Shown here: one piece after another, positions 1,420-60,321 of the stretch
Numbering within the stretch: the first letter of the stretch is position 1
Layout of the letters: the number at the start of each line of letters is the position of its first letter
NCBI GenBank assembly: GCA_012960975.1
Contig: DUAE01000028.1
Span: 17,927 to 81,926 of the forward strand
Reading direction: 5' to 3'
From: Candidatus Poseidoniales archaeon
GTDB taxonomy: Archaea; Thermoplasmatota; Poseidoniia; Poseidoniales; Thalassarchaeaceae
DNA: 64,000 nt
Translations under genes and position numbers: made by a program
The notes under the pieces: generated by a model
What the model was told of the DNA's origin: nothing
The model's database searches: none
What the model saw: the letters and a program-made list of their open reading frames with translations, nothing else

Positions 1420-2589
1420 ATGAAGAATGCCTACGCAGTGTACGTGGCAGAGGACAATTTATGGGTTCAACCTGTTGAAAACTCCTTGGATGCCATTCTA
1501 CATGGAATGAAATATAGCGATGGGGTTGAGTTCGATTTACGCTTAACCAAGGATAAACGACTAATTCTCCATCACGATCCACGCGATTCAGATAATCGTT
1601 ATCTAGAGGAATATGAATCAGACAAACTCGACAATAGCCTAATTTATTTTGATGAGTTATTAGAAAAATCAGAATTTGTCGATCCTTGGATAAATCAAGC
1701 AAAAATCGCTTGCATCGAATTAAAGGCACCCCATCCAAAATCAAGAGTTGGTGGTGGCTGGTTCGGAAATGAAGCATGTGTGAGCCATATGAAGGATATG
1801 ATTCAATTAGTAAATGAAAATATTTCTGCGTTTGACATCCCAAAAACGAGCAAAGTAATTTACTCATTTGAACCCCTCACGATGAAAGCTGCTCGAGCCT
1901 TTGGAGATGAACATGATTTTGCACAATTAATGCCACATCTACGACAATGGGGGACGACTACAGTTCAACGAATGATGGGGACACCTTCATTCATCTCCCA
2001 TTCTCTACCTCGCCTAGTTGAACGTCATCGAGCAAAAGGCTCACCCCTCCTACCATGCGCTTCTACATATCTTTTCGGCCTTCGTCGCCATCTTACTCTT
2101 GGAAGAACAATTAGTTTGACTCCTGCATCGATTGAGAGATTGAATCGATCAAGAAAGGGCTATCCAATTTATATTTGGCCGGCATATCTCAAAATCGAAC
2201 ACACATTACAAAAATCAGGAATTACAACTCTAACCGACTATTTGGATCCAAATCTCTACACACTTCCAGGAGGAGATGCACGGTGGATTAAGCCGGCTAC
2301 ACAACCGTTGTTACCGGAACAAAAAATCGAATTGGAATTAGCACCCATTGAGATGCACAAAGAATTGATTGATGAATTGAGGTCAAATGTCACCCCTTGG
2401 CACGAATTATCGCCATCACAGAGGCGTGCGCACCTATCGACCTGGAGAAAGAATTGGTATTGGGAAAAAAGCCTCGATGAGTTGTTTGATCTCTCTAATT
2501 CTAACAGATTGCCATGGGAAGTGGTTCGAATGGTGGGTCATCGAGGAACTGGAAAAAATATTCTCCCAAATTATTCCAATCTACGATGA
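1420..2589 (+). CDS. Glycerophosphodiester phosphodiesterase (GDPD)-like protein, atypical
   Basis: ORF 1411-2589 starts at TTG; the first ATG is at 1420. VENSLDAILHG...DGVEFDLRLTKDKRLILHHD and CIELK resemble the GDPD motifs ENTL, E.D..LTKDG..V.HD and E.K. The N-terminal HRG motif is missing, but MVGHRGTGKN sits at the extreme C-terminus. Confidence 0.5.
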   Translation: MKNAYAVYVAEDNLWVQPVENSLDAILHGMKYSDGVEFDLRLTKDKRLILHHDPRDSDNRYLEEYESDKLDNSLIYFDELLEKSEFVDPWINQAKIACIELKAPHPKSRVGGGWFGNEACVSHMKDMIQLVNENISAFDIPKTSKVIYSFEPLTMKAARAFGDEHDFAQLMPHLRQWGTTTVQRMMGTPSFISHSLPRLVERHRAKGSPLLPCASTYLFGLRRHLTLGRTISLTPASIERLNRSRKGYPIYIWPAYLKIEHTLQKSGITTLTDYLDPNLYTLPGGDARWIKPATQPLLPEQKIELELAPIEMHKELIDELRSNVTPWHELSPSQRRAHLSTWRKNWYWEKSLDELFDLSNSNRLPWEVVRMVGHRGTGKNILPNYSNLR

Positions 2590-3740
2590 GGTTGATTTTT
2601 TGGAATATATTTTGGTCGATAAATTGGCGTTCCTCGGCCACCACGAGCATTTCGTTCATCAAGAATTTGGGCACTTATTCCAGCTACACGAGCCCACCCG
2701 AAGAAAGTCGTATAGTATTCTGGCATCCTAAATCCAACCGAATTTAATAAACTTCCACTTGCGATATCAACATTAGGGTATGGATTACTAATTTTTGGGA
2801 TCTCTGATAAGATCGGTGGAACGACTTCTCTCAGTGCCTTGACGATTTGAAAATTATCGTCATCTGGACATATTTCTTCTCCGAGTTCGATGAGTAGTCT
2901 CGCCCGAGGATCTTCAGCTCGAAGAACACCGTGACCGAATCCATAAATTGGCCGCCGATTTGCTAATTCTTCACGAACAAATTCTTCAATCTCTTCGTGA
3001 TTTGATGTTCCAATTCGTTGAACGAACTCCAAACAAGATTGGTTTGCACGACCATGTAATGGCCCTGAAAGTGCATTCATTGCACTTGAAAGTGATGAGT
3101 AAATACTAGCCCATCCAGATGCGACTGCTTTCCCTGAAAAGGTCGAAAGATTGCCACCCCCATGATCCATGTGTAAAATGAAGAAGAACCTGAGAACATG
3201 CGTGACTTTCTCTGCTCTTTCACCTTCATAACCCATCATGTGAACAAAATTTTCAACAAGACCAAGTTCTGGTTTACGAGGCTTAAGTTTGTCTTCAACT
3301 CCATTTCTCAATCTGAAAATTCTCGCCATCAATTCAGGCATTCTAGCAATTAAATTCATCGCATCAGCTCGAGTGTCACCTGTCGTCTCCGCAGTACCAA
3401 GAGCCATTATTCCAATCGATAACCAATCCATTGGATGGCCCGACCCTGGTGTTAATGATTCCAATACTCTCAATGCACCAGTTGGAATGTTTTTACCACG
3501 TTGTGCTAGTTCTGCACGGAATTCTTTCGATTCATGGTCAGATGGTAATCTCTTGTACATCAGAAGAAAAATAACATCTTCTTCTTCCAAATCTACTAGG
3601 TCCTCTACTGGATACCCGACATAATGAATCCCCTCAATGGGATCGACATAAGAGGTCTGACAAGTACCTACTGGAATTCCTCGTAATCCTGTATCGAGAT
3701 GCTTGTCTGTCACTGTGAACAAATCTTCACCATCTACCAT
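2571..3740 (-). CDS. gltA: Citrate synthase
   Basis: 389 aa. Motifs: GIHYVGYPVEDL, LHMDHGGGNLSTF (HxDH..N.ST) and GFGHGVLRAEDPRA (GFGHxV...DPR). Confidence 0.92.
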   Translation of the reverse strand: MVDGEDLFTVTDKHLDTGLRGIPVGTCQTSYVDPIEGIHYVGYPVEDLVDLEEEDVIFLLMYKRLPSDHESKEFRAELAQRGKNIPTGALRVLESLTPGSGHPMDWLSIGIMALGTAETTGDTRADAMNLIARMPELMARIFRLRNGVEDKLKPRKPELGLVENFVHMMGYEGERAEKVTHVLRFFFILHMDHGGGNLSTFSGKAVASGWASIYSSLSSAMNALSGPLHGRANQSCLEFVQRIGTSNHEEIEEFVREELANRRPIYGFGHGVLRAEDPRARLLIELGEEICPDDDNFQIVKALREVVPPILSEIPKISNPYPNVDIASGSLLNSVGFRMPEYYTTFFGWARVAGISAQILDERNARGGRGTPIYRPKYIPKNQPHRRLE

Positions 3741-5812: not shown

Positions 5813-6706
5813 ATGAGCCATTTTGTCACTCTCACTTTGCTTGGAACAGCCCAAGATGCTGGACTCCCACAAGCTGGTTGTGGTTGCGAAAGATGCAGCC
5901 TTGCTCATGTCGATTCATCGAAAATTCGATTCCCAGTGTCTTTAGGAATTCGAGGTCTAGATGATTCGAATCATCTCATCGAAGTCACAAGAAGATTGCC
6001 TGCACAACTTTCAGAATGGGCGTCATCACTCGGCGAGAAAATACCAATAACACCCGATTCAGTAACATTCACTCACCTTCACCTGGGGCACATAGAAGGT
6101 TTAGGCCAATTTGGAAAACCCGCTATGGCGCTGAAGGATATACCAATTTATTCTACACGAAAAAATCTCGACTATTTGGGAAAACGAATCGATTTCAAAC
6201 AAATGGTAGACGATGGTAATTTCAATCCAGTTGGGATAGATTTTGAACAACCTTTCAAACCGACTGAAGAATGTGGGTTTACTATAGAATTGATAGAAAT
6301 TCCACATCGAAATGAAAATGGAGATACAGCTGGGATCATCATTCGAGGACCAAAAAACGCCCTCCTCTTTCTACCCGATCACGATACTTGGGAAGAAACT
6401 CTTATCGCCACTAATTCAAGAAACATAAGAGAATTTTTTAAAAAATTACAAATTAATGAAGCTTGGATTGACGGGACTTTTTGGAATGGAGAGGAATTAT
6501 CCAAACGAGATATGTCAAAAATCCCTCATCCGACTATCGAAGAGAGTTTGATGAGATTACAAAAAAAAGAATATAATGATATTAATGTGAAATTTATCCA
6601 CTTCAACCATACTAACCCAGTTTGTGATGACAGAAGTGAAGAGTGGCAGCAGATTAAATCGAAGGGGTGGGGCATTGGCCGAAGAGGAGATGTCATCAAA
6701 CTCTGA
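5813..6706 (+). CDS. PqqB-like metallo-beta-lactamase-fold protein
   Basis: The N-terminus LLGTAQDAGLPQAGCGCERC resembles PqqB LGSAAGGGFPQWNCNC.NC. THLHLGHIEGL is an MBL-type His motif. Confidence 0.6.
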   Translation: MSHFVTLTLLGTAQDAGLPQAGCGCERCSLAHVDSSKIRFPVSLGIRGLDDSNHLIEVTRRLPAQLSEWASSLGEKIPITPDSVTFTHLHLGHIEGLGQFGKPAMALKDIPIYSTRKNLDYLGKRIDFKQMVDDGNFNPVGIDFEQPFKPTEECGFTIELIEIPHRNENGDTAGIIIRGPKNALLFLPDHDTWEETLIATNSRNIREFFKKLQINEAWIDGTFWNGEELSKRDMSKIPHPTIEESLMRLQKKEYNDINVKFIHFNHTNPVCDDRSEEWQQIKSKGWGIGRRGDVIKL

Positions 6707-6736
6707 TAATTAGCGTCGAGAAATGCTCATGAACAG

Positions 6737-7189
6737 ATGGGCAAACCGCAACCCATGGATATGAGAGGCTATATCACAAGTGGGCTAGGCAGAGCTCATG
6801 TTTTCATGGCTCAGTCTCATTATCAAAATCAATTCAAGAAAGTTCTCGACGCAGGAGCTTGGCCGGGTACTTTGAATTTAGATTTAGAAGGCGAAAACCT
6901 AGAATTTTACAAAAATCTAAGAATAATTGCAGGTTTAGATGAAGGCAAAGTCAATTTGGGCCCAGAACCTTTGAGGATACAAGGATTTGAGAGAGATGGA
7001 AAATCATTCGGGGGTGCGACTGCATTCAGAGGTGAAATTTCAATCGATGGGGAAAATTGGATTTCATGCGCCATATTAATTCCGGATCTGACCCGACATA
7101 CAAAAATTGCAGAGATTATCTCGGGATCTTTTCTTCGCGAAAGCCTTCCTTGTTCCGATGGTGATGAAGTTCAAATCAGATTGAATTGA
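6737..7189 (+). CDS. ribK: CTP-dependent riboflavin kinase (archaeal RibK)
   Basis: 150 aa. GLGRAHVFMAQSHYQNQFKKVL...WPGTLNLDL matches the archaeal riboflavin kinase (MJ0056-type) signature G.G.G......Y..qf.....PGTLN. Confidence 0.8.
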   Translation: MGKPQPMDMRGYITSGLGRAHVFMAQSHYQNQFKKVLDAGAWPGTLNLDLEGENLEFYKNLRIIAGLDEGKVNLGPEPLRIQGFERDGKSFGGATAFRGEISIDGENWISCAILIPDLTRHTKIAEIISGSFLRESLPCSDGDEVQIRLN

Positions 7190-8039
7190 GAGAAATTAAC
7201 CATTCTCGTTCCAAAAGTAACCCCATTTCGAGTTTTGCCATCGAGAGCCACCTTTTGTATCGAGTTTTATCTTGGGGTTGAACTGTAAATGAGGATGTTT
7301 CTGCAATTGAATCCAATCCCATACCATCAGAATCTTTGTGTTCGATTTTCCAAAGTATGAGTCCATGTGATTGATTTCTTCCGAGATCGGAAGATATTTC
7401 GGGAGAATTCAGAGCAGATTTAACCTCCTCAATATTTATTCTGCCTGAAACTACTCCGGTGAGAGCTGAAGCGATTCGTCTAACTTGATTCCACAAAAAC
7501 GCTTCAGATTTAATGGAAAAACCAACAAGCCGACCCTTATCACTATACCATGGTTCGCAATTATCTATGGTTCTATTAGGGTTAATATCCTTCTCAAGAC
7601 GGCAAAAATTTGTGAAATTATGGTTGCCAACAAATAAATCACAAACATCCCCAAATAAATCTTCATCAACAATTTCAGGCCATTCTTCACTCATTTCAGT
7701 TCGAAATAGATATGTTCTGCTGATCGCACCCCGGCTCCTAACCATTGAATTGACAAAACGTAAATCCCAAATCGACATTGAGGGAGACAATTTATTATTC
7801 AAAACTCTAATAATCGTTGATTTGGGGACATTATCATATACTTTTTGTGGAATATCGATGCAGGCTAAATTCATTCTGACATTCACACCTGCGTCCGTCC
7901 GGCTTGACATTTCTAAACATCCATCCTCCCACCAAGTAATCTTGCGAAGTGCATATTCAATTTCCCCTTGAACAGTAGAAACATTAGGTTGAATTTGGGA
8001 GCCATGAAACGCTTCGCCATGGTATCCAAAAGCGACCAT
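7176..8039 (-). CDS. truA: tRNA pseudouridine synthase A
   Basis: The ORF runs to 8057 (TTG). ATG at 8039 gives MVAFGYHGEAFHGSQIQP (the YdG..f.G.Q.Q motif). The catalytic SRTDAGVN motif is present. Confidence 0.85.
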   Translation of the reverse strand: MVAFGYHGEAFHGSQIQPNVSTVQGEIEYALRKITWWEDGCLEMSSRTDAGVNVRMNLACIDIPQKVYDNVPKSTIIRVLNNKLSPSMSIWDLRFVNSMVRSRGAISRTYLFRTEMSEEWPEIVDEDLFGDVCDLFVGNHNFTNFCRLEKDINPNRTIDNCEPWYSDKGRLVGFSIKSEAFLWNQVRRIASALTGVVSGRINIEEVKSALNSPEISSDLGRNQSHGLILWKIEHKDSDGMGLDSIAETSSFTVQPQDKTRYKRWLSMAKLEMGLLLEREWLISLNSI

Positions 8040-49351: not shown

Positions 49352-49389
49352 GGGGGCCTTGGGTCGGCGGGACGATATAGGTGAATACC

Positions 49390-51441
49390 ATGATGGACAA
49401 TATACCACTGATTGCAGCAGGAGCAGGTCTCTTCGGACTAGTAATTGCTATGATTCTATACAAGAAAGTTAACAGCATTGAAATAGACAACCCTAAGGTT
49501 GCCGAGATTACAGAAGAAATTCAAAACGGAGCAATGGCCTTCCTCTTTGCAGAATACAAGGTCTTAGCAATTTTCGTAGTTGTTGTTGGTGCGCTATTAG
49601 TACCGCTCAATGATAACAACCCAGACACAGCAATTGCATTCTTTGCAGGTGCAATCGCTTCAGTTCTAGCAGGATTCTCAGGAATGCGCTCTGCAACTTC
49701 CGCTAATGGAAGAACTGCAATGGCTGCAAAGAATGGCGGTCAATCTGCTGCATTAGAGGTTTCATACAATGGTGGCGCAGTCATGGGCCTTTCAGTAGGT
49801 GGACTTGGTCTTCTCGGTATTTCCTTAGTTGCATACTGGCTTGACGCTGGTAGTGCAACTGCAGACCTTTCTGCGGCTGCAGGATTCGGTATGGGTGCTT
49901 CATCCATCGCTCTATTCGCTCGTGTTGGTGGTGGAATTTACACAAAGGCTGCTGACGTTGGTGCTGACTTAGTCGGTAAGGTTGAGGCTGGTATTCCAGA
50001 AGATGACCCGCGAAATCCTGGTGTTATTGCAGATAACGTCGGAGACAATGTAGGTGATGTCGCTGGAATGGGTGCTGATATCTTCGAATCATTCGTTGGT
50101 TCTATCATCGCAGCAATGATTATTGCTTCAAGCTTTGATGAAACAGTAAAGGCAGATTACATTCTATTGCCTATTCTATTAGGTCTAATTGGTTATGTTG
50201 CATCTATCATCGGTGTGTTCTCAATGACTATTCTAAAGAATGGAAGCAATCCAGCAGCAGCACTTCGTAACACGACCTTCATCGCAGCAATTCTATTCGT
50301 TATCGGTGGATACTTATCTATCAAGCAAGGAATTATTGACGTCGAATATGGCGTAATGCATTCCGTTGTACTTGGAAGCGCTGTAGGTATTCTAATCGGA
50401 TTGGTTACTGAATACTATACAGGAATTGAACCAGTCTTTGGAATTAAGACAAAGGCTATTTCACATATTGGCCAGATGTCTCAAACCGGACCAGCAACAA
50501 ATGCTATCGCAGGACTTTCCGTTGGAATGATGTCTACATTCATCCCTGTACTATTAATCGCAGCAGGCATCTATGGAGCAAATGAATTCGGAGGAGAAAC
50601 ATATGGATTATACTCTATTGCAATGGCTGCAATGGGTATGCTAGCAACAGTCGGTGTTACTATGACAGTAGATGCATACGGACCAGTTGCTGACAATGCC
50701 GGTGGAATCGCAGAGATGTGTGCACTTGGTGATGATGTCCGTAAGATCACTGACGAACTTGATTCAATCGGAAATACTACCGCTGCAGTCGGAAAGGGAT
50801 TCGCTATTGGTTCAGCAGCACTAACTGCTCTTGCATTATTCGCAGCATATACCACAGCGGTTGGAGATATTGAATTATCTCTTACCAACCCAATAGTAGT
50901 AATCGGAATTCTAATCGGTGGCTCTCTACCATTCGTAGTAGCGGCAATGACCATGACCTCAGTCGGAAAGGCTGCTGGAGAAATGGTTGAAGAAATCCGC
51001 AGGCAATTCCGTGAAATTGATGGATTACTAGAAGGTCGAGAAGGTGTTAAGCCTGATTCACAAAAGTGTGTTGACATTTCAACAAAGGCTGCTCTACGCG
51101 AGATGGTTGGACCAGGTATTGTTGCAATAACTGCTCCAGTAATCGTTGGAGTTGTACTCGGTGCAGAAGCACTCGGTGGACTTCTTGCAGGTTCTCTTGT
51201 TACAGGTGTTTTGATGGCTCTATTCATGGCTAACGCTGGTGGTGCTTGGGATAACGCAAAGAAAGCGATTGAACAAGGACACATTGAAGGCGCTCAGAAG
51301 GGAGATTCAGCTCATGATGCAGCAATTATCGGAGATACTATCGGTGACCCATTCAAGGATACCTCTGGACCATCTCTAAACATTCTAATCAAGTTGATGG
51401 CAATTGTCGCAGTAGTTCTTGCTGGTACAAATGTACTTTGA
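49390..51441 (+). CDS. hppA: Membrane-bound H+/Na+-translocating pyrophosphatase
   Basis: Motifs: [51 protein letters not shown] and [15 protein letters not shown]. The track starts it at GTG 49381; ATG 49390 is preceded by GGTGA. Confidence 0.96.
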
Positions 51442-51504
51442 ACTTGAAAAAGTGTTCAAAATCATGAGCGTCAGCCTCTTGACTGTGTGACGAGAGGGTT
51501 AACC

Positions 51505-52470
51505 ATGCGGAATGCATACGTGCTAGGTTTGGTCACCCTCTTGTTGGCAACAACATTGGCAGGATGCACGGGAATTACCGGAGGAAATGGTGGCGATTCT
51601 GCAAATTCATCCCTAAATGTGCCAATATGGGAAATCGGTGAGAATTGGCTCTACACATTTTCAACCCCTGAATACAGTGATGACATCGCTCGGCTTGTTG
51701 TTGCAACAGTCGACGAAGAAGATGGCGGTACAGCCTATATGCTCGGAATTTCAAGCCTCACCGAAGCTCGACGACATGCCGTTTTGAACCATAATCCATT
51801 CCTTGGTAGAATTACTCATGGAAATTTGAGCGCCTACGAAAATGGTGAACCCCAGCAAGTTCTACAATTTCCTCTCAAGCAAAACTCTGCATGGGAATTC
51901 ACACTTTTTTCTATTGGATGGAACGCGGTAGTAATTTCAGCAGATAGCGATTCAGCCGCAATCAGAGCAACGTCAAGTGATGGCCAGAGTCTAGACTATG
52001 CCTATGACTCTGAAATCAAATTCTTTTCTTCGTTTGTTTGGACTGACGCAGCAGGAATTGAACAATTACGCATGATATATGCTGACCATGATATTGGTTA
52101 CTCTGGAGATGTTTATTTCGTCCGAGGTGGAGATATTTACACCAATACTTGGGATAATTCAGGACCGAATGCAGAAATTCGCGACACGTTTTTCGTTAGT
52201 GGGCATCCAAAAGATGGCGAATGGGATGAGATGATTTACTTCCTCGACGCATCTTGTGGTGGTGGTTCATCCTCACTAACTCTGACTTTACGCGATCATT
52301 CCTCACTTTCGTTGCTCGAACGTGCGATGGGGCCGGGGTCAGAAGAAATGGGCACGCTCGGTACAATTTCTTATCCTACACAGGAATATACACTCACACT
52401 TACATTCACTGGAACAACTCACCTACGACTAATACTCGCTGGTGGTATTACCTACTCATGGACTCTGTGA
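51505..52470 (+). CDS. Hypothetical exported lipoprotein
   Basis: MRNAYVLGLVTLLLATTLAGCTG is a signal peptide plus lipobox. I recognise no other motif. Confidence 0.45.
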   Translation: MRNAYVLGLVTLLLATTLAGCTGITGGNGGDSANSSLNVPIWEIGENWLYTFSTPEYSDDIARLVVATVDEEDGGTAYMLGISSLTEARRHAVLNHNPFLGRITHGNLSAYENGEPQQVLQFPLKQNSAWEFTLFSIGWNAVVISADSDSAAIRATSSDGQSLDYAYDSEIKFFSSFVWTDAAGIEQLRMIYADHDIGYSGDVYFVRGGDIYTNTWDNSGPNAEIRDTFFVSGHPKDGEWDEMIYFLDASCGGGSSSLTLTLRDHSSLSLLERAMGPGSEEMGTLGTISYPTQEYTLTLTFTGTTHLRLILAGGITYSWTL

Positions 52471-53071: not shown

Positions 53072-53332
53072 TCATTTCAGATAACGTTGTAAATGATCTG
53101 AACCACCTACGAAAATTGGCGTATCTTCTCTCAGGTCAAAAATCACTGGAACAGTACGATGTCCGGTTTCATTGACAACAATCGATCTCCATTCGGGGTC
53201 GGTATCGAAATTGATTTCAGTGAAACTCATTCTTTTTCCATTTAACTGCCCCTTTGCCATGCTGCAATAAGGGCAAAATGTTGATCTAAATACCAAAAAA
53301 TCCGTTTTAGTTTCATTGAGTAATTGATGCAA
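53072..53332 (-). CDS. Glutaredoxin-like protein (CPYC)
   Basis: VFRSTFCPYCSMAK...TVPVIF...IFVGGSDHL is the Grx fold signature. The longest ORF reaches 53437. TTG at 53332 gives about 86 aa and a 20-nt overlap with the upstream gene. Confidence 0.7.
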   Translation of the reverse strand: MHQLLNETKTDFLVFRSTFCPYCSMAKGQLNGKRMSFTEINFDTDPEWRSIVVNETGHRTVPVIFDLREDTPIFVGGSDHLQRYLK

Positions 53333-56300
53333 TTTCTCCAAAGTCTTCCACCTCCAAAATAGCGTCGAGGGTCGGCTCTTCTCCACCCTCGTCATCATCG
53401 TTGTCAAACCGACCTTCAAGAACCCTATCAGTCTCATCAGGGTCGATGAATAATAGAAGGAAGACGGTTGCTAAAGTCAGTGCCGCACCGATATACAACG
53501 CTGTGATATAATCGAAGCGTTGAATCATTTCACCGGCGAACAAGTAAGCAATTACCGCCGAGAAATTAAACATCGACATATAGGCTGTAAATTGAGTTCC
53601 ACCGGCCTTGCTGTATGTCAACCTCATCGAAACTGCAATTATACAAATCCAGGCAATGCCTGTGAATATTGCTCGTGTACAAAGATAAATCGTCATCACC
53701 AATGTATTAGTCCAATAATCGGTGAGTAAGGCTAGTCCTGCATTTCCGAGAGCGAGCGAGGTAAATCCAAGCATGGCGATTTCACGAACCCCATATCTAT
53801 CTCCAAGAATGCCACCTATTATTTGGCCGAACATTATGAAGAGAATTACAATACCTCCCATAATAGCGTTATATTTTGTTTGAGACCAACCCGCCTCGTT
53901 GATGAAAATATCAATGACGATGGGGTCGGTGAAAACGTATAACTCAGATAATAAACAAAGGAAAATTAACAAGAATGAAGATCTAGTCGAAAATCCTTGA
54001 ATAATGTGATATGCAGTAGTAGACATTGTTTTCTTTGAAGATTTAGTTGTGAAGAAGAAAACATTTGGAACACGGCCAAGAGACAAACCAACCTTTTCTA
54101 GCAACAGAATTATGACTGAAATCCCCATCAAAATTTTCCCTATGGAACTGAATGGCGAACCTATATTTCCAAGAAACTCGCTTGCAGTTACAACCTTCAT
54201 GATGTTGAAAGCCCCCCCGATTAGCAATGCAATAATTGCAGTCCACAATAATAGTGCAGCTGGGTGAATTCGCTCTTCATAGAGATTTATTGCAACCCAC
54301 TTAGCAGTTCTAAATCTTGAATCATTACTCTCTTCCCACACTAGTAATTCATCTTCTTCGGAATCATCTTCTTCATTCTGCCAATTGTTAATGGTGTGGT
54401 CAACCTTGTCCCATGGGAATAATCGATCACCATCTTTTTCTCGCAAAAATAACGGCATCATCATGATTAGTAATAAAAGTGGAAGTTGAACCATTATCGC
54501 AGATTTAATACCAAAAGGAACTACTAGCATCCCGAGGATTGCTCCTCCAAAGATAATTCCACCTCGCTTGGCGGCAAACATGAAACCATTAGCTTTTGCA
54601 ACTTCATCTGGTTGTAAAATATCAACGGCTAATGCATCCACACTCACATCCTGAAGTGAAGAGAATAGATTATGGATAAACAATAATATTGTCACCAGTG
54701 CAATGGATTCATTGAGATTTGGAACGAAAAGGAGGGTCGCGAGGGAGATGACCATTCCAGATTGTGCAAAAAGAATCCATGGTCTTCTAATTCCATAAGC
54801 AGGGAATCTTATGACATCAATCACTGGACCCCAGATGAATTTGAATGTCCATGGTAGTGCAATAGTTGCGAAGAGAATTGCGATTTCTGCGGGAGTAGTT
54901 CCGTTTTCGACCAAGTATGCTACAAAGGCGACATAAGTGAATCCAGATGGTAATCCTTGAGCGACATATAGAATACAGAGCGAGATAAATCTGCGTACTT
55001 TATTTTCTGCTAATGAATTACCAGCTTTCCATGTTGTTTTCAATTCTGAAACAGAATTCTTGAGTTCTGAAGGATGCAGTGCACGTATTCCAAGTCCTTT
55101 TTCATCATCTGAATTATTTGAGTGAGGAGACCTAAACTTGTCAATCCATCTTTCATTAATCGAGATATAGGTCAATAAACCGAGAACTATTAAGAATGGG
55201 AAAAAGAAAATATATGAGCCAATAGAGGTCAAATCTCCGCTTTGACCTAAACCTGAACTCACAGCATCGACAAGGATTACCCTTCGGGCATCAACCGGCG
55301 AAATGCTGTCTTCGGAAACTACTATCCGTGCATAAATGGTGGTATTTCCAGACTGTTGATGAGGGTCTAATTTGACTCTCCATGTTGACCAATCTCCGGA
55401 TTTAGATAAATCAGCTGCACCCTTCCATTCCCCGCCGCCAACACGCACCTCGACGAGCCCTGAACCTGGAATCACTCCGGAAGCTATTCCCGAAATGTAC
55501 GATTCGTTACCAATTTCATCCATCGTTTCAATGTCCATACTGATATTGAGTGAACGATCGATACTTCCTGCTGCTTCGACAAATGCGAGTGGGTTGGCCT
55601 GACCATAACCGAATTCATTGTCAGGTCGGCTCTCAAGCAAACTGCAATCATTCAAACCGGGATCACCGCCGATTGAAATATCCCTTTCAATCGAATGTAC
55701 AGAGACAATTTCTTTGAAATCAGCATGGGTCAAATCAGGGTTTGCCTCGACCATTAAAGCCGCAATACCTGCCATCAGAGGAGTTGCCATACTGGTTCCG
55801 GATTTACTTGTATAACCATCTTGAGTTGCAGCATCTGGAGCCATAATGTTAGAGCCAATTGTAGAAACATCTGGCTTGACTCGACCGTCCGAAGTGTATC
55901 CTCGACTCGAGTAAATCGCTAATTCAAGATTTTTATCCAGTGAAGCAACAGTTACAGGAAGTTGAGCATCGCCTGGGCTATCGATCGTATTACAACCAGC
56001 GAAAGTTACGCCACCAAATTCATTTCCAGCAGACAAAGTGGTGATAATTCCAGAATCAGCAACCGCATCCATCTGGCGACTCCAAGCGCTAGAGCCGTCA
56101 TTGTCGAAATGAACCTCAAATTGTTGCTCACCAAGCGATGAAGTGAGAATATCAATCTCTAGACGATCTTTATTGTCAATTGCCCATTGTGCACCTTCGA
56201 TGATATCTTCGATATCTCCTTCACAACATGCGAGGATATTGATTATCCAAGCACCGGGGGCAGCACCAATGTATCGAGAACCATCCGCTGCAGTCTGCCC

Positions 56301-57110
56301 ACCACCAGTTCCAGCTGCAATTCCAGAAACATGAGAACCGTGTGTACCTGAATCAAACGAATCTTCAGCCGGCTGTTCAGAATGAGTATATACAGCATCA
56401 TAGAATGCTTTGACCTTAGGGTCACAATCTGCTGGAATTGGCCCAGGATTAGGATCTAAAGGATCTGGTGGATCGTCAATACAAGTGAACGGATCATCAT
56501 CCATATCGTTCAGACCTTCGTGATCTCCACGCACACCTGTATCTAGTACGGCGATTGTCACTCCTGTTCCAATATAGCCGAAATCCGCCCAAACAGAATC
56601 AACGCCCATATTTGGGACAGCCTCATTCATGTGAGTTTCAGCGAGGCCGAGATCTTCTATCATCACCACTCCCATTAGTGAAAGTATTCCATTTTCACTA
56701 TGAATTATTTCAAGCGGAACTGTAACTGATAATGTGTCAAGGTACATTGGTCGTGAAGTTATTATCGCACCTAAGTCCTCAAGTGCTCTCACATCAGCAT
56801 TACTCGGATGGTGGTCATAATCTACGAATACTCTGGCAAATCCAGAATCGGCTTTTCTCCACCAATCGAGTTGAAATTCTTCAGGTTGGTCGAGTATCCA
56901 TTCAAGTCGGTCATCGAGTGAATCACCATCTTTGTCTCTAGACCAATCTAGCCACCAATTTGCGTGAATTTCGAGTTCGTGACTCTGAACCCATCTCCCA
57001 TCCGCATCGTAGCCACCCCGCTCATCATTGGGGATTATTGTCGAGGTTGCGATGGGTAACAAAAACAATAGAATAATCGTTGAAGCAAACAGAGCCCGAC
57101 GTCCTACCAT
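53313..57110 (-). CDS. Fusion protein: secreted subtilisin-like serine protease (S8) + single TM + AmpG/PAT-family MFS permease
   Basis: 1265-aa uninterrupted ORF with a signal-like N-terminus. S8 triad motifs AVLDTGV, HGSHVSGIAAG and SGTSMATPLMAG. The TM helix is at aa ~630-651. The MFS half has AQGLPSGF, LPWTFKFIWGPVIDV, YGIRRPWILFAQ and SSLQDVSVDALAVD, aligning by eye to E. coli AmpG. Confidence 0.8.
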   Translation of the reverse strand: MVGRRALFASTIILLFLLPIATSTIIPNDERGGYDADGRWVQSHELEIHANWWLDWSRDKDGDSLDDRLEWILDQPEEFQLDWWRKADSGFARVFVDYDHHPSNADVRALEDLGAIITSRPMYLDTLSVTVPLEIIHSENGILSLMGVVMIEDLGLAETHMNEAVPNMGVDSVWADFGYIGTGVTIAVLDTGVRGDHEGLNDMDDDPFTCIDDPPDPLDPNPGPIPADCDPKVKAFYDAVYTHSEQPAEDSFDSGTHGSHVSGIAAGTGGGQTAADGSRYIGAAPGAWIINILACCEGDIEDIIEGAQWAIDNKDRLEIDILTSSLGEQQFEVHFDNDGSSAWSRQMDAVADSGIITTLSAGNEFGGVTFAGCNTIDSPGDAQLPVTVASLDKNLELAIYSSRGYTSDGRVKPDVSTIGSNIMAPDAATQDGYTSKSGTSMATPLMAGIAALMVEANPDLTHADFKEIVSVHSIERDISIGGDPGLNDCSLLESRPDNEFGYGQANPLAFVEAAGSIDRSLNISMDIETMDEIGNESYISGIASGVIPGSGLVEVRVGGGEWKGAADLSKSGDWSTWRVKLDPHQQSGNTTIYARIVVSEDSISPVDARRVILVDAVSSGLGQSGDLTSIGSYIFFFPFLIVLGLLTYISINERWIDKFRSPHSNNSDDEKGLGIRALHPSELKNSVSELKTTWKAGNSLAENKVRRFISLCILYVAQGLPSGFTYVAFVAYLVENGTTPAEIAILFATIALPWTFKFIWGPVIDVIRFPAYGIRRPWILFAQSGMVISLATLLFVPNLNESIALVTILLFIHNLFSSLQDVSVDALAVDILQPDEVAKANGFMFAAKRGGIIFGGAILGMLVVPFGIKSAIMVQLPLLLLIMMMPLFLREKDGDRLFPWDKVDHTINNWQNEEDDSEEDELLVWEESNDSRFRTAKWVAINLYEERIHPAALLLWTAIIALLIGGAFNIMKVVTASEFLGNIGSPFSSIGKILMGISVIILLLEKVGLSLGRVPNVFFFTTKSSKKTMSTTAYHIIQGFSTRSSFLLIFLCLLSELYVFTDPIVIDIFINEAGWSQTKYNAIMGGIVILFIMFGQIIGGILGDRYGVREIAMLGFTSLALGNAGLALLTDYWTNTLVMTIYLCTRAIFTGIAWICIIAVSMRLTYSKAGGTQFTAYMSMFNFSAVIAYLFAGEMIQRFDYITALYIGAALTLATVFLLLFIDPDETDRVLEGRFDNDDDEGGEEPTLDAILEVEDFGEIASITQ

Positions 57111-58134: not shown

Positions 58135-58848
58135 ATGGCAGACACGGTGGAAGATGCGATTACCGCTTTCTCAGCGGGTAAACCAGTGATGGTTTTCGAC
58201 TCTGATTTCCGTGAGAGAGAAACAGATCTTCTGTGGCCCGCTACCGCTGCAACACCTGCTGTCATGCGCCGTCTTCGCCAAGATTGTGGAGGCCTACTTT
58301 TTCTAGCAATTGGTGATGAAATTGGCCAAATGTTCGATTTACCCTGGTTACAAGATCTTCATACAAACTCTGATTTAGTCAATGAAAATCCAGTCCTAGC
58401 ACACCTTGTAACAAACGATCTGCAATACGATTCACGCTCCGCCTTCACACTATCAATTAATCACCGTGACACATACACAGGAATCACGGACAGAGATCGC
58501 TCTCTAACTACCAGTAGATTTGGAGAATTAGCTGGAGAATTATTGTCTCAAGGAATCTCTGGAGTCGCTGCATTTGAAGCTCTAGGCGCCGAGTTCCGAA
58601 CTCCCGGCCACATTCCAGTATGCAGAGAATCTCCTGGTGGCCTATCTTCGCGACAGGGGCACACTGAACTTGCAGTCACAATTGCCAGATTGGCCGGTCA
58701 AATTCCAGCAACTATGGGTGCAGAGATGTTAGAATTGGATGGTGATGGAGCACTTTCTGTCGCTGATGCTCGTGCCTATGCAAAGAAGCATAATATCCCA
58801 ATGATTACAGGTGCTGATTTGTTGGCAGCACTTGGTTTAGAAGAATAA
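58135..58848 (+). CDS. ribB: 3,4-dihydroxy-2-butanone 4-phosphate synthase
   Basis: AITAFSAGKPVMVFDSDFRERETDLLWPA and RTPGHIPV are the DHBP synthase signature. Confidence 0.9.
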   Translation: MADTVEDAITAFSAGKPVMVFDSDFRERETDLLWPATAATPAVMRRLRQDCGGLLFLAIGDEIGQMFDLPWLQDLHTNSDLVNENPVLAHLVTNDLQYDSRSAFTLSINHRDTYTGITDRDRSLTTSRFGELAGELLSQGISGVAAFEALGAEFRTPGHIPVCRESPGGLSSRQGHTELAVTIARLAGQIPATMGAEMLELDGDGALSVADARAYAKKHNIPMITGADLLAALGLEE

Positions 58849-58865
58849 TATTTGAAGGTGAAAAA

Positions 58866-59324
58866 ATGGTTCGGGTAATGGCTGCCGGGGTTTTTGATCT
58901 ACTTCACGCTGGCCATTTACACTATGTCGAACAGGCAAAATCGCTTGGAGATGAGTTGGTTGTCGTCATAGCTCACGATGACACAGTTCGCAAAAGAAAA
59001 CATGAACCAGTAACGAATCAAAACTTGCGTTGCCGTATGGTTGCTGGGCTAAAACCGGTTGACTCCGCCATTGTGGGCAATTCACCAGATGTGCCAATTT
59101 TTGATATTCTAAAACAAGTACAGCCCGATATTATCGCTCTCGGTTATGATCAGAAACATTCTATGGATGCGATAAGAACTGGTTTGGATGCAAATGGTTA
59201 CGACGATATCAAAGTAGTTCGTGTCGAAGGACTTTCTGATGATCTAGATGGTACTCGTAAAATCATTTCAAAAATTCTCGATATATGGTCAGGAGAGACC
59301 GGTGGTCCTTACGAGGAGGATTGA
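58866..59324 (+). CDS. ribL: FAD synthase (archaeal RibL, cytidylyltransferase-like)
   Basis: VMAAGVFDLLHAGHLHYVEQAKSLGDELVVVIAHDDTVRKRK is the G.FD..H.GH nucleotidyltransferase motif, and the 152-aa size matches MJ1179-type RibL. Confidence 0.8.
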   Translation: MVRVMAAGVFDLLHAGHLHYVEQAKSLGDELVVVIAHDDTVRKRKHEPVTNQNLRCRMVAGLKPVDSAIVGNSPDVPIFDILKQVQPDIIALGYDQKHSMDAIRTGLDANGYDDIKVVRVEGLSDDLDGTRKIISKILDIWSGETGGPYEED

Positions 59325-59326
59325 GA

Positions 59327-59929
59327 ATGTACACTGGAATTGTAGCTGGAATTTGCCAAATTGTGGCGATTGAAGACGGTGAAGAGATTCGTAGTTTTAC
59401 CATCGATCTCAGCGGGTTTGATGAAGGTCTCCAAATCGGAGCGAGCGTCGCTTTGGATGGCGTTTGTATGACTGTGGTATCTCTCGATGGTACGAAAATT
59501 CGATTTGATGCTATTCCTGAAACTCTCAAGCGAACGACACTTGGCGATTTGAACGTGGATGACTGGGTAAATGTTGAGCGAACTCTAAAATTAGGTGACG
59601 AATTAGGTGGTCACATCCTTTCAGGCCATGTGATGTTGACTGTGCAAGTTCTTGAAAAATCAGAACGTGGCGAAGGAATCGATCTTCTGATTGAGAATCT
59701 AGATGAAGTTCGGCCATACATTTTGGAAAAGGGCTTCATCGGAATTGATGGAATGTCTCTGACCGTTGGTGAGGTTACCGAAAATAGCTTTGAATTGCAC
59801 ATTATTCCTGAAACATTGAGAGTCACTACCATAGGACGGAAAGAGATCGGACACCGCGTGAACCTTGAGATTGACTCTCGCACACAAGCCGTTGTTGATA
59901 CCATTCGACAAATGGGGGTTGAACAATGA
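59327..59929 (+). CDS. ribE: Riboflavin synthase, bacterial-type alpha chain
   Basis: MYTGIVAGICQIV N-terminus, with the duplicated lumazine-binding repeats GASVALDGVCMTV and GIDGMSLTV. ATG 59327 follows the ribL stop by 2 nt. Confidence 0.9.
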   Translation: MYTGIVAGICQIVAIEDGEEIRSFTIDLSGFDEGLQIGASVALDGVCMTVVSLDGTKIRFDAIPETLKRTTLGDLNVDDWVNVERTLKLGDELGGHILSGHVMLTVQVLEKSERGEGIDLLIENLDEVRPYILEKGFIGIDGMSLTVGEVTENSFELHIIPETLRVTTIGRKEIGHRVNLEIDSRTQAVVDTIRQMGVEQ

Positions 59930-60321
59930 AAATAGCTGCAGTTTGTGGTTCGTTTCATAAAGATGAAATTACCCGAATGCTTGAATTCGCAAAGGATGAG
60001 GCTGAAACATTAAATTGTGAAATTAGCGAAATAATCTGGGTACCCGGTTCGATGGAAATTCCTCTCGCACTCGAACGCATTTTACCACGCGATGATATCG
60101 ATGCTGCCATCGCTCTGGGAATTATCGAGCGCGGTCAAACTCAACACGGATTAGTGATGGGGCAATCGGTGACTAAGGCAATTATTGACTTGCAAATCAA
60201 ACATAACAAGCCTATAGGGCTTGGAATAATTGGTCCCGGAGCAGAGCCAGAGCACATCGAGCCACGCCTCGAACCACATGCAAGAGCATCCGTTAGTGCA
60301 GTCACAAAAATGTTTGAGTAA
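59926..60321 (+). CDS. ribH: 6,7-dimethyl-8-ribityllumazine synthase
   Basis: 131 aa. IAAVCGSFHKDEIT...VPGSMEIPLA is the lumazine synthase pattern (V.G..E.P). The start overlaps the ribE stop by 4 nt. Confidence 0.85.
   Translation: MKIAAVCGSFHKDEITRMLEFAKDEAETLNCEISEIIWVPGSMEIPLALERILPRDDIDAAIALGIIERGQTQHGLVMGQSVTKAIIDLQIKHNKPIGLGIIGPGAEPEHIEPRLEPHARASVSAVTKMFE

Follow-up and report, generated by a model that had tools for sequence, protein, structure and literature searches.

A predicted subtilisin-permease fusion protein of marine Poseidoniales archaea and the exchangeable ectodomains of its family

The 64,000-nucleotide stretch of the Candidatus Poseidoniales contig DUAE01000028.1 that was analyzed in this study (hereafter the window) carries a single uninterrupted ATG-to-stop open reading frame (ORF) on the minus strand at 53313..57110, which encodes 1265 amino acids (aa) plus a stop codon, exactly as had been claimed in an original prediction made from the DNA letters. 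An ORF of this length cannot be attained by chance in DNA with a GC content of about 43%. The encoded protein combines a subtilisin-like (S8) ectodomain, a transmembrane (TM) anchor and a major facilitator superfamily (MFS) permease in one polypeptide, and it is referred to below as S8-MFS. This assignment is based on the reading frame itself, on Pfam and NCBIfam domain matches and on more than 120 clusters of full-length homologues. The signal peptide, propeptide-like domain, S8 domain and beta-rich domain of the N-terminal half should be located outside the cell, and the anchor and a cytoplasmic linker lead into a 14-TM proton-type MFS permease with an AmpG/PAT-like N-lobe. Hydropathy analysis was in keeping with the previously proposed topology, with the protease outside, one TM helix and the MFS N-terminus inside, and we are nearly certain of the architecture as described here. 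Neither a composition break nor a skew jump was observed at the junction between the S8 and MFS parts, and the lower GC content of the MFS half fits its content of hydrophobic residues. A second copy of the gene was not found within the window.

The protein starts with a signal peptide or uncleaved N-terminal anchor (aa 1-26, 57033..57110; all protein features are on the minus strand), in which the signal-like character noticed earlier was recovered as a hydrophobic segment at aa 8-26 that is preceded by the two arginines of the N-terminal MVGRR. It is followed by a propeptide-like domain (aa 27-180, 56571..57032), the core of which (aa ~56-156) was modelled by AlphaFold2 with a predicted local distance difference test score (pLDDT) of about 90. 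The element order in this model, beta-alpha-beta-beta-alpha-beta, was read at aa ~91-153 and may correspond to that of subtilisin propeptides. The propeptide had been proposed to be I9-like, and this part of the proposal was confirmed only in part, as the Inhibitor_I9 profile of Pfam gave no match in the S8-MFS protein even at E<=1. The catalytic domain (aa 181-503, 55602..56570) was aligned by Peptidase_S8 (PF00082) over the whole profile (1-288/288; E 6.7e-42, 144.2 bits against a cut-off of 21.8), and its closest solved structure is that of Tk-SP from Thermococcus kodakarensis (3afg, E 2e-32; also 9ues). After checking of the codons, the catalytic residues could be assigned to D190 (56541-56543), H257 (56340-56342) and S440 (55791-55793), all three of which are invariant across 121 aligned sequences with 61-99% identity, and the oxyanion residue to N363 (56022-56024), which is invariant in an alignment of 21 sequences. 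The triad motifs thus occur where they had been reported and the aspartate and histidine had been numbered correctly, but the serine is S440 of SGTSMATP (aa 437-444) rather than S439. The S8 head keeps every catalytic residue, and proteolytic activity is predicted. The beta-rich post-catalytic domain (aa 504-630, 55221..55601) has a conservation of 0.94, but is modelled with a pLDDT below 50 and shows a weak CBM_6-like signal that remains under the Pfam cut-off (E 0.005-0.014).

The anchor helix (aa 631-652, 55155..55220) was defined by hydropathy as a single TM segment at aa 633-651 (55158-55214), close to the position of aa ~630-651 given before, and it is additionally supported by an alignment with an invariant phenylalanine and by pLDDT values of 92-97. 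The cytoplasmic linker that follows (aa 653-705, 54996..55154) ends, according to AlphaFold2, in a conserved helix before TM1. Hydropathy then identified six and eight further hydrophobic segments. The first six are TM1-6 of the AmpG/PAT-like N-lobe (aa 706-890, 54441..54995), which was recognized by Pfam and NCBIfam and was matched to the AmpG N-lobe by hhalign (98.4%). Within these coordinates lie, by alignment, K757, the motif A residues D765...G773-x-R775-R776, the TM4 residues D821/D825/D830, and K848. Next come the central cytoplasmic loop (aa 891-952, 54255..54440), two extra TM helices between the lobes (aa 953-1011, 54078..54254; defined by hydropathy, alignment and AlphaFold2) and the C-lobe with its six TM helices (aa 1012-1222, 53445..54077; defined by hydropathy, hhalign and AlphaFold2), in which a motif-A-like GDRYGVRE is found at aa 1103. 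The extra helix pair is present in S8-class proteins and some proteins of another class (unkA, see below), and it is missing from 12-TM paralogues. The protein ends in a conserved DPDETDRVLEGR motif and a tail (aa 1223-1265, 53316..53444) recognized by hydropathy and alignment. Both the central loop and the tail are acidic, as had been noted, with 18 D/E residues in 63 aa (by hydropathy) and 17 D/E residues in 43 aa, respectively. Across the 121 sequences the mean conservation is 0.92 for the S8 domain and 0.93-0.95 for the MFS half, against 0.73 for the linker, the lowest value of all parts, which indicates that the two halves are equally constrained and the linker is not.

To what extent the fusion is shared by other genomes can be judged from a search of 5.8 billion proteins, in which more than 120 clusters (1264-1302 aa, 66-99% identity) were recovered, all of them with both Pfam domains. 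These clusters derive from ENA, JGI, NCBI and Logan assemblies with contigs of up to 345 kb, and hundreds of copies of the fusion are already present in databases, named 'subtilisin family serine protease/MFS family permease' at JGI and 'hypothetical protein' of 'Euryarchaeota/Methanobacteriota archaeon' at NCBI. Two further proteins with the full-length architecture (P0121, 62% identical; P0123, 45%) were found in a library that had been clustered at 50% identity. In a scan that covered each GTDB species with one genome, at least 564 relatives of the permease were detected, and the best 80 loci were analyzed. An S8 head is present in 34 of these, in about 27 cases as a complete gene, and the genomes concerned belong to the Thalassarchaeaceae (Marine Group IIb, MGIIb), other Poseidoniales and Marine Group III. 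Some of them, such as AG-422-I22 (L019), are apparently single-cell assemblies, judging by their names and the missing tag of a metagenome-assembled genome (MAG). In the survey of fused against split genes that had been suggested earlier, none of the 34 S8-head loci has a split S8-MFS gene, and no split version was found beside an MFS gene, two unfused proteases (P0122 and P0136) being without an MFS neighbour. Nothing other than the slight GC difference between the halves could be cited in favour of an artefact in which separate genes were joined by mis-assembly, frameshift or sequencing error. Against it stand the identical junction, which recurs in independent assemblies (more than 120 clusters) and across species (about 27 complete genes), and the fact that the anchor and linker are themselves conserved, so that the probability of such an artefact is negligible. 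On the strength of these sequence comparisons, we consider the fusion to be real, conserved and recurrent.

The most informative result was obtained from synteny. Of the S8-class loci for which the flanks were checked, 22 of 30 match the arrangement of the window exactly, with riboflavin genes and a GHMP-kinase-like gene upstream, and a glutaredoxin gene, an alpha/beta hydrolase gene (in about half of the 22 loci), a gene for a 327-aa lipoprotein-like protein and an H+-pyrophosphatase gene downstream. In other Poseidoniales the orthologous slot is occupied by permease genes with other heads, namely unkA-MFS genes (L013, L015, L022, L029) or Peptidase_M28-MFS genes (L040, L075, L077), and the slot genes of these loci are located at about 4.6-8.0 kb of each locus. 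A neighbour-joining tree of the permease cores, which is approximate, placed the syntenic unkA proteins within the S8 clade at two positions, and showed an intermixing of head types within the 12-TM clade. The shared slot and the permease tree together show that heads have been replaced in place on an orthologous permease. Two unrelated peptidase families, S8 and M28, occupy this one orthologous slot.

Members of this family have in common a homologous extra TM helix with the motif FFxP(W)F, an acidic linker and an MFS core, while their N-terminal ectodomains differ. The alignment showed that the FFxP(W)F anchor helix, with its invariant phenylalanine, is homologous across all ectodomain classes. 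Among the 80 loci, the 34 S8 heads are accompanied by 21 heads of a class designated unkB (~225 aa), seven of the class unkA (a Cys-containing domain of ~240 aa), five Peptidase_M28 heads, the identity of which was confirmed by Pfam, and a number of singletons. Of 25 metagenomic heads, five are M28 domains and five are cupredoxins (the latter in loci L099-L161), and a cupredoxin head of the plastocyanin/azurin type is also present in P0131. Cupredoxin heads and a further unknown domain are found in paralogues of the permease. For unkA, a homologue search yielded no more than 20 proteins, all closely related, most of them fragments and none with a Pfam domain. Profile-profile comparison of the S8 post-catalytic domain, the pro-region, unkA, unkB and M28 detected no similarity. 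The bacterial relatives of the permease are mostly stand-alone proteins, and two bacterial members (P0265, P0149) are fused to glycoside hydrolases. At the C-terminal end of P0265, P0149 and P0235, three kinds of extension were observed: an MGH1-like glycoside hydrolase accompanied by GH65C and F5/8-type-C domains, a 3-keto-disaccharide hydrolase, and FG-GAP repeats. The cupredoxin heads suggest a redox or copper-related variant of processing and import. For the Poseidoniales and Marine Group III we tentatively propose, as a possibility that we hold to be rather less probable than its contrary, an MFS family with an N-terminal TM helix in which each swapped head prepares a substrate, by cutting or by redox chemistry, for import by its own permease. 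Poseidoniales-type ectodomain-MFS genes were also encountered on contigs in MAGs labelled Rhodobiaceae, Salipiger bermudensis and Nitrospina (L043, L049, L068), which are probably mis-binned archaeal contigs.

The permease half resembles AmpG most closely. Pfam matches to MFS_1, BT1 and Acatn lie from aa 708 onwards and exceed their cut-offs: MFS_1 (PF07690) aligned at aa 711-1002 and a second stretch with E 1.8e-31 and 109.8 bits against 33.4. Of the two profiles of the PAT/acetyl-CoA transporter group, both matched on the N-lobe, BT1 scored 56.9 bits against 22, and Acatn, which covers the N-lobe only, scored 30.1 against 23.7. The AmpG family model of NCBIfam (TIGR00901) aligned aa 706-1221 to nearly its full length (4-416/417), which bears out the earlier alignment by eye of residues ~706-1235 with AmpG, the motifs quoted at that time being in place. 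However, the AmpG cut-offs were missed by all three models, with 125.9 bits against 350 for TIGR00901, 46.1 against 756 for NF008238 and 56.5 against 656 for NF008867. Of the profiles that the original prediction had named, Peptidase_S8 and MFS_1 were therefore recovered above cut-off, whereas TIGR00901 aligned below its cut-off and Inhibitor_I9 was absent. Among solved transporters, AmpG structures and SLC33A1 come closest, and Foldseek against the PDB ranked AmpG structures at positions 1-4 (E 7.8e-15 to 1.4e-8), so that AmpG (TIGR00901; 9j9z, 8zbb, 9c3f, 8zgz) is the best match of the permease half in both sequence and fold. The two extra inter-lobe helices are likewise shared by S8-MFS and the AmpG proteins of E. 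coli and Yokenella (PMC12214514), but AmpG lacks the 630-aa ectodomain and the additional N-terminal TM helix of S8-MFS. For Yokenella AmpG, K62, D125, Y152, R153 and R365 have been described as substrate residues and D125, D238 and E326 as proton residues (PMC12214514). Equivalences to these residues were derived from phmmer and hhalign alignments in Yokenella numbering. In the N-lobe, K62 corresponds to K757, D70 of motif A to D765, and D125/D129/D134 to D821/D825/D830; both motif A and the acidic TM4 residues shared with AmpG are conserved, R153 is represented by K848 and Y152 has no equivalent. In the C-lobe, R365 is replaced by A/V/G, D238 has no equivalent, and the proton acceptor E326 corresponds to R1146 in this protein and to R/K/H/Q/Y in its relatives; these C-lobe equivalences are provisional because the alignment is weak (hhalign probability of 52%). 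Because its scores are lower than the cut-offs of the family and its C-lobe departs from AmpG at the residues for substrate and protons, the permease, as judged by profiles and alignments, is AmpG-like but not a true AmpG member. The replacement of the AmpG C-lobe residues for substrate and proton binding further indicates that the substrate is probably not a muropeptide. Unlike the hosts of AmpG, the archaeal host has no murein.

Structure prediction with AlphaFold2 depended on the alignment that was provided. With 21 close homologues (aa 27-1226), the mean pLDDT was 49 and the S8 part was not modelled. An alignment of 118 sequences gave pLDDT values above 90 for the anchor helix and for 14 TM helices.

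Based on these data, the best reading of S8-MFS is one in which digestion is coupled to import, and we assign to it a probability of about 0.5. The tethered subtilisin would cut extracellular or cell-surface proteins beside the mouth of its own permease, and the permease would import the resulting small peptides or glycopeptides, with the membrane potential as the driving force. In this way, diffusive loss of product would be reduced for a free-living cell that lacks a periplasm. The import direction, the peptide or glycopeptide nature of the substrate and the hand-over between the two domains are what we infer here. Support comes from the functional residues that are kept in both halves and from the M28 peptidase in the same slot on an orthologous permease. 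Poseidoniales are, moreover, thought to live on proteins and peptides (PMC9723583).

Several observations weigh against this coupled function, which had also been put forward in the original prediction and which is thus upheld in part only. The S8 protease does not need the permease, since P0122, a paralogue that is 70% identical over the ectodomain and anchor, ends right after the TM anchor, and since distant protease relatives are simple C-terminally anchored enzymes. P0122 is encoded on at least nine Tara Oceans contigs in another context, where SnoaL_2 and GtrA genes adjoin and no MFS gene is nearby; in three of the loci (L164-L166) the gene was located at about 1.4-3.7 kb. The presence of cupredoxin heads and of other heads mostly without a recognizable fold in the same permease family implies that hydrolysis is no general rule of the family. 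The permease did not pass the AmpG tests described above, and the PTR2/POT peptide-transporter profile of Pfam gave no match at E<=1. In the AlphaFold2 model based on 118 sequences, the S8 core remained below a pLDDT of 50, probably because distant S8-only sequences were aligned poorly, and the geometry of head versus permease is unreadable. Among 69 immediate neighbours of stand-alone permease relatives, no peptidase was found in the 25 commonest Pfam families. Finally, published transcript data could not be linked to this gene: the 'subtilase' that is reported by Damashek et al. to be highly transcribed was rejected as an instance of the fusion, since the annotated bin that was checked contains stand-alone S8 proteins of 813 aa (gene 558) and 710 aa (gene 59).

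The same survey of 69 neighbours identified GT4 glycosyltransferases, ApbE, YbjQ and AsmA as the commonest families, which makes the individual cases of a peptidase next to a stand-alone permease anecdotal rather than general evidence. Two such cases, in which the pairing of the fusion recurs in the form of separate genes, were noted. In a Phycisphaerae MAG (L065; 399-2057 on the minus strand and 2150-3271 on the plus strand) the permease is divergent from a secreted dockerin-bearing Peptidase_S8, and in an Isosphaeraceae MAG (L060; 3693-5879 on the minus strand and 5998-7323 on the plus strand) it is divergent from a secreted dockerin-bearing M12B reprolysin with PA14. In Verrucomicrobiales the stand-alone permease adjoins a gene of the proline-racemase family (L050, 3677-7332; L053, 543-2928; L074, 8-2395). 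A DAO oxidoreductase is also encoded in L050, and a sulfatase in L050 and, judging by gene order, apparently in L053. These neighbours hint at proline- or hydroxyproline-related substrates for the Verrucomicrobiales branch.

Both domains of S8-MFS are ordinary, and the coupling of hydrolysis to uptake is an already known idea. The combination of a processing enzyme and a transporter in one polypeptide is known from the C39-peptidase ABC exporters (PCAT) and from LplT-Aas. PCAT differs in that a cytoplasmic peptidase and an ABC exporter are combined and processing precedes export, and in LplT-Aas the flipping of lipids is coupled to their acylation. The membrane-anchored archaeal subtilases have the same layout as the N-terminal half of S8-MFS, with a signal peptide, pro-region, S8 domain, beta domain and single C-terminal TM helix, but they end in a short basic tail, whereas the anchor of S8-MFS runs on into the 14-TM permease. 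The MFS importers PepT1/PepT2 (SLC15) have an extracellular domain that binds trypsin, for which a clustering of proteolysis at the site of uptake was proposed (PMC4597091). They differ from S8-MFS in that the protease is separate and transiently bound, the transporter belongs to the POT family, and the domain is inserted between TM9 and TM10 instead of being N-terminal. A second non-covalent precedent is AmpG1 from Acinetobacter baumannii, the periplasmic domain of which binds Slt, a lytic transglycosylase that generates the substrate of the permease (PMC13507758). It differs from S8-MFS in that the hydrolase cleaves glycans and the substrate is a muropeptide.

Three other explanations for the fusion have to be weighed. 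The permease, with 13 or 15 TM helices, might mainly be a platform that presents interchangeable surface domains, in which case protease and transporter would work independently. The attachment of unrelated heads (S8, M28, cupredoxin, two unknown folds, FG-GAP) to one permease family, the occurrence of the S8 head on a bare anchor and the lack of a general peptidase neighbourhood all agree with this idea. However, a single TM helix already serves as an anchor, and yet motif A, the second motif-A-like element and the buried charges are kept at a conservation of 0.93-0.95; two unrelated peptidase families in one orthologous slot are also hard to explain without a functional link. We therefore regard this explanation as unlikely. 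For the same reason, the earlier suggestion that the MFS half serves as an anchor does not convince as its only role, since the single TM anchor is present and stand-alone relatives of the protease use such an anchor.

The protease could alternatively trim the surface (glyco)proteins of its own cell, for example those of the S-layer, with AmpG-like re-import of the fragments by the permease. This would be a special case of coupled digestion and import that acts on the cell's own material rather than on food. AmpG is indeed the closest family by sequence and fold, AmpG1 is physically coupled to a wall hydrolase, and both the housekeeping character of the neighbourhood and the clade-wide conservation would suit such a role. 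The AmpG residues for sugar binding and proton transfer (Y152, R365, D238, E326) are not kept, however, no link to S-layer genes was found, and some lineages carry an M28 aminopeptidase or a cupredoxin in place of the S8 head, which together make recycling of the envelope rather improbable. Even less credit can be given to the reverse direction of transport, in which the permease would export a peptide or another precursor that is then matured outside by the tethered subtilisin, in the way that LanP-type S8 proteases mature lantibiotics after export. Many MFS proteins are exporters, the direction of transport is unreadable from sequence, and the replacement of E326 by a basic residue implies that coupling may differ from that in AmpG. 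Against this, the conserved neighbourhood contains no genes for precursor peptides or their modification, the nearest characterized relatives by profile score (AmpG, RhtX/FptX) are named uptake systems, and the alternative M28 aminopeptidase head suits nutrition better than maturation.

The genes around the fusion deserve separate mention. The H+-translocating pyrophosphatase gene (49381-51441, plus strand) and the riboflavin set (58135-60321, plus strand) flank the locus and are syntenic across MGIIb. The riboflavin set includes DHBP synthase, a cytidylyltransferase-like protein (probably RibL), riboflavin synthase and lumazine synthase, and the H+-pyrophosphatase is reported to be highly transcribed in Poseidoniales (PMC9723583). 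An ORF of 327 aa (51487-52470, plus strand) has a lipoprotein-like N-terminus (LLLATTLAGCTG) and belongs to no Pfam family. Its position, two or three genes beyond the fusion in the downstream direction, is kept in 21 of the 30 S8-class loci and in nine other loci; the product is a conserved surface protein and a possible partner of the fusion. The glutaredoxin ORF as listed (53072-53437, minus strand) shares 125 nt with the 3' end of the fusion gene. Its Glutaredoxin domain begins only at residue 48, and the overlap in related loci ranges from none to more than 100 nt, being less than 30 nt in roughly a third of them. The true start of the glutaredoxin gene is probably an internal ATG.

In line with the original prediction, targeted full-text literature searches found no paper on the covalent joining of S8 and MFS domains, on the fixed locus of the gene or on the exchange of heads in place. 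AmpG is never mentioned in the Poseidoniales literature that was searched, and a survey of archaeal fusions (PMC11237513) mentions neither subtilisin nor MFS. The S8-MFS genes merit a bifunctional annotation, since inventories of peptidases and transporters can easily enter them as just 'a subtilase' or just 'an MFS'. The exchangeable heads make it possible to study, as in a natural experiment, how transporters acquire accessory domains outside the cell, and the head variants provide a set of chimeras for studying the hand-over of substrates to MFS proteins. The uncultured Poseidoniales rank among the most abundant surface-ocean heterotrophs. If our reading is true, the direct attachment of a protease to the importer of its products would offer a concrete and testable mechanism by which a free-living cell that lacks a periplasm retains what it digests outside. 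The processing of substrates by such heads and their import could then account for the capture of protein-derived organic matter by the most abundant planktonic archaea.

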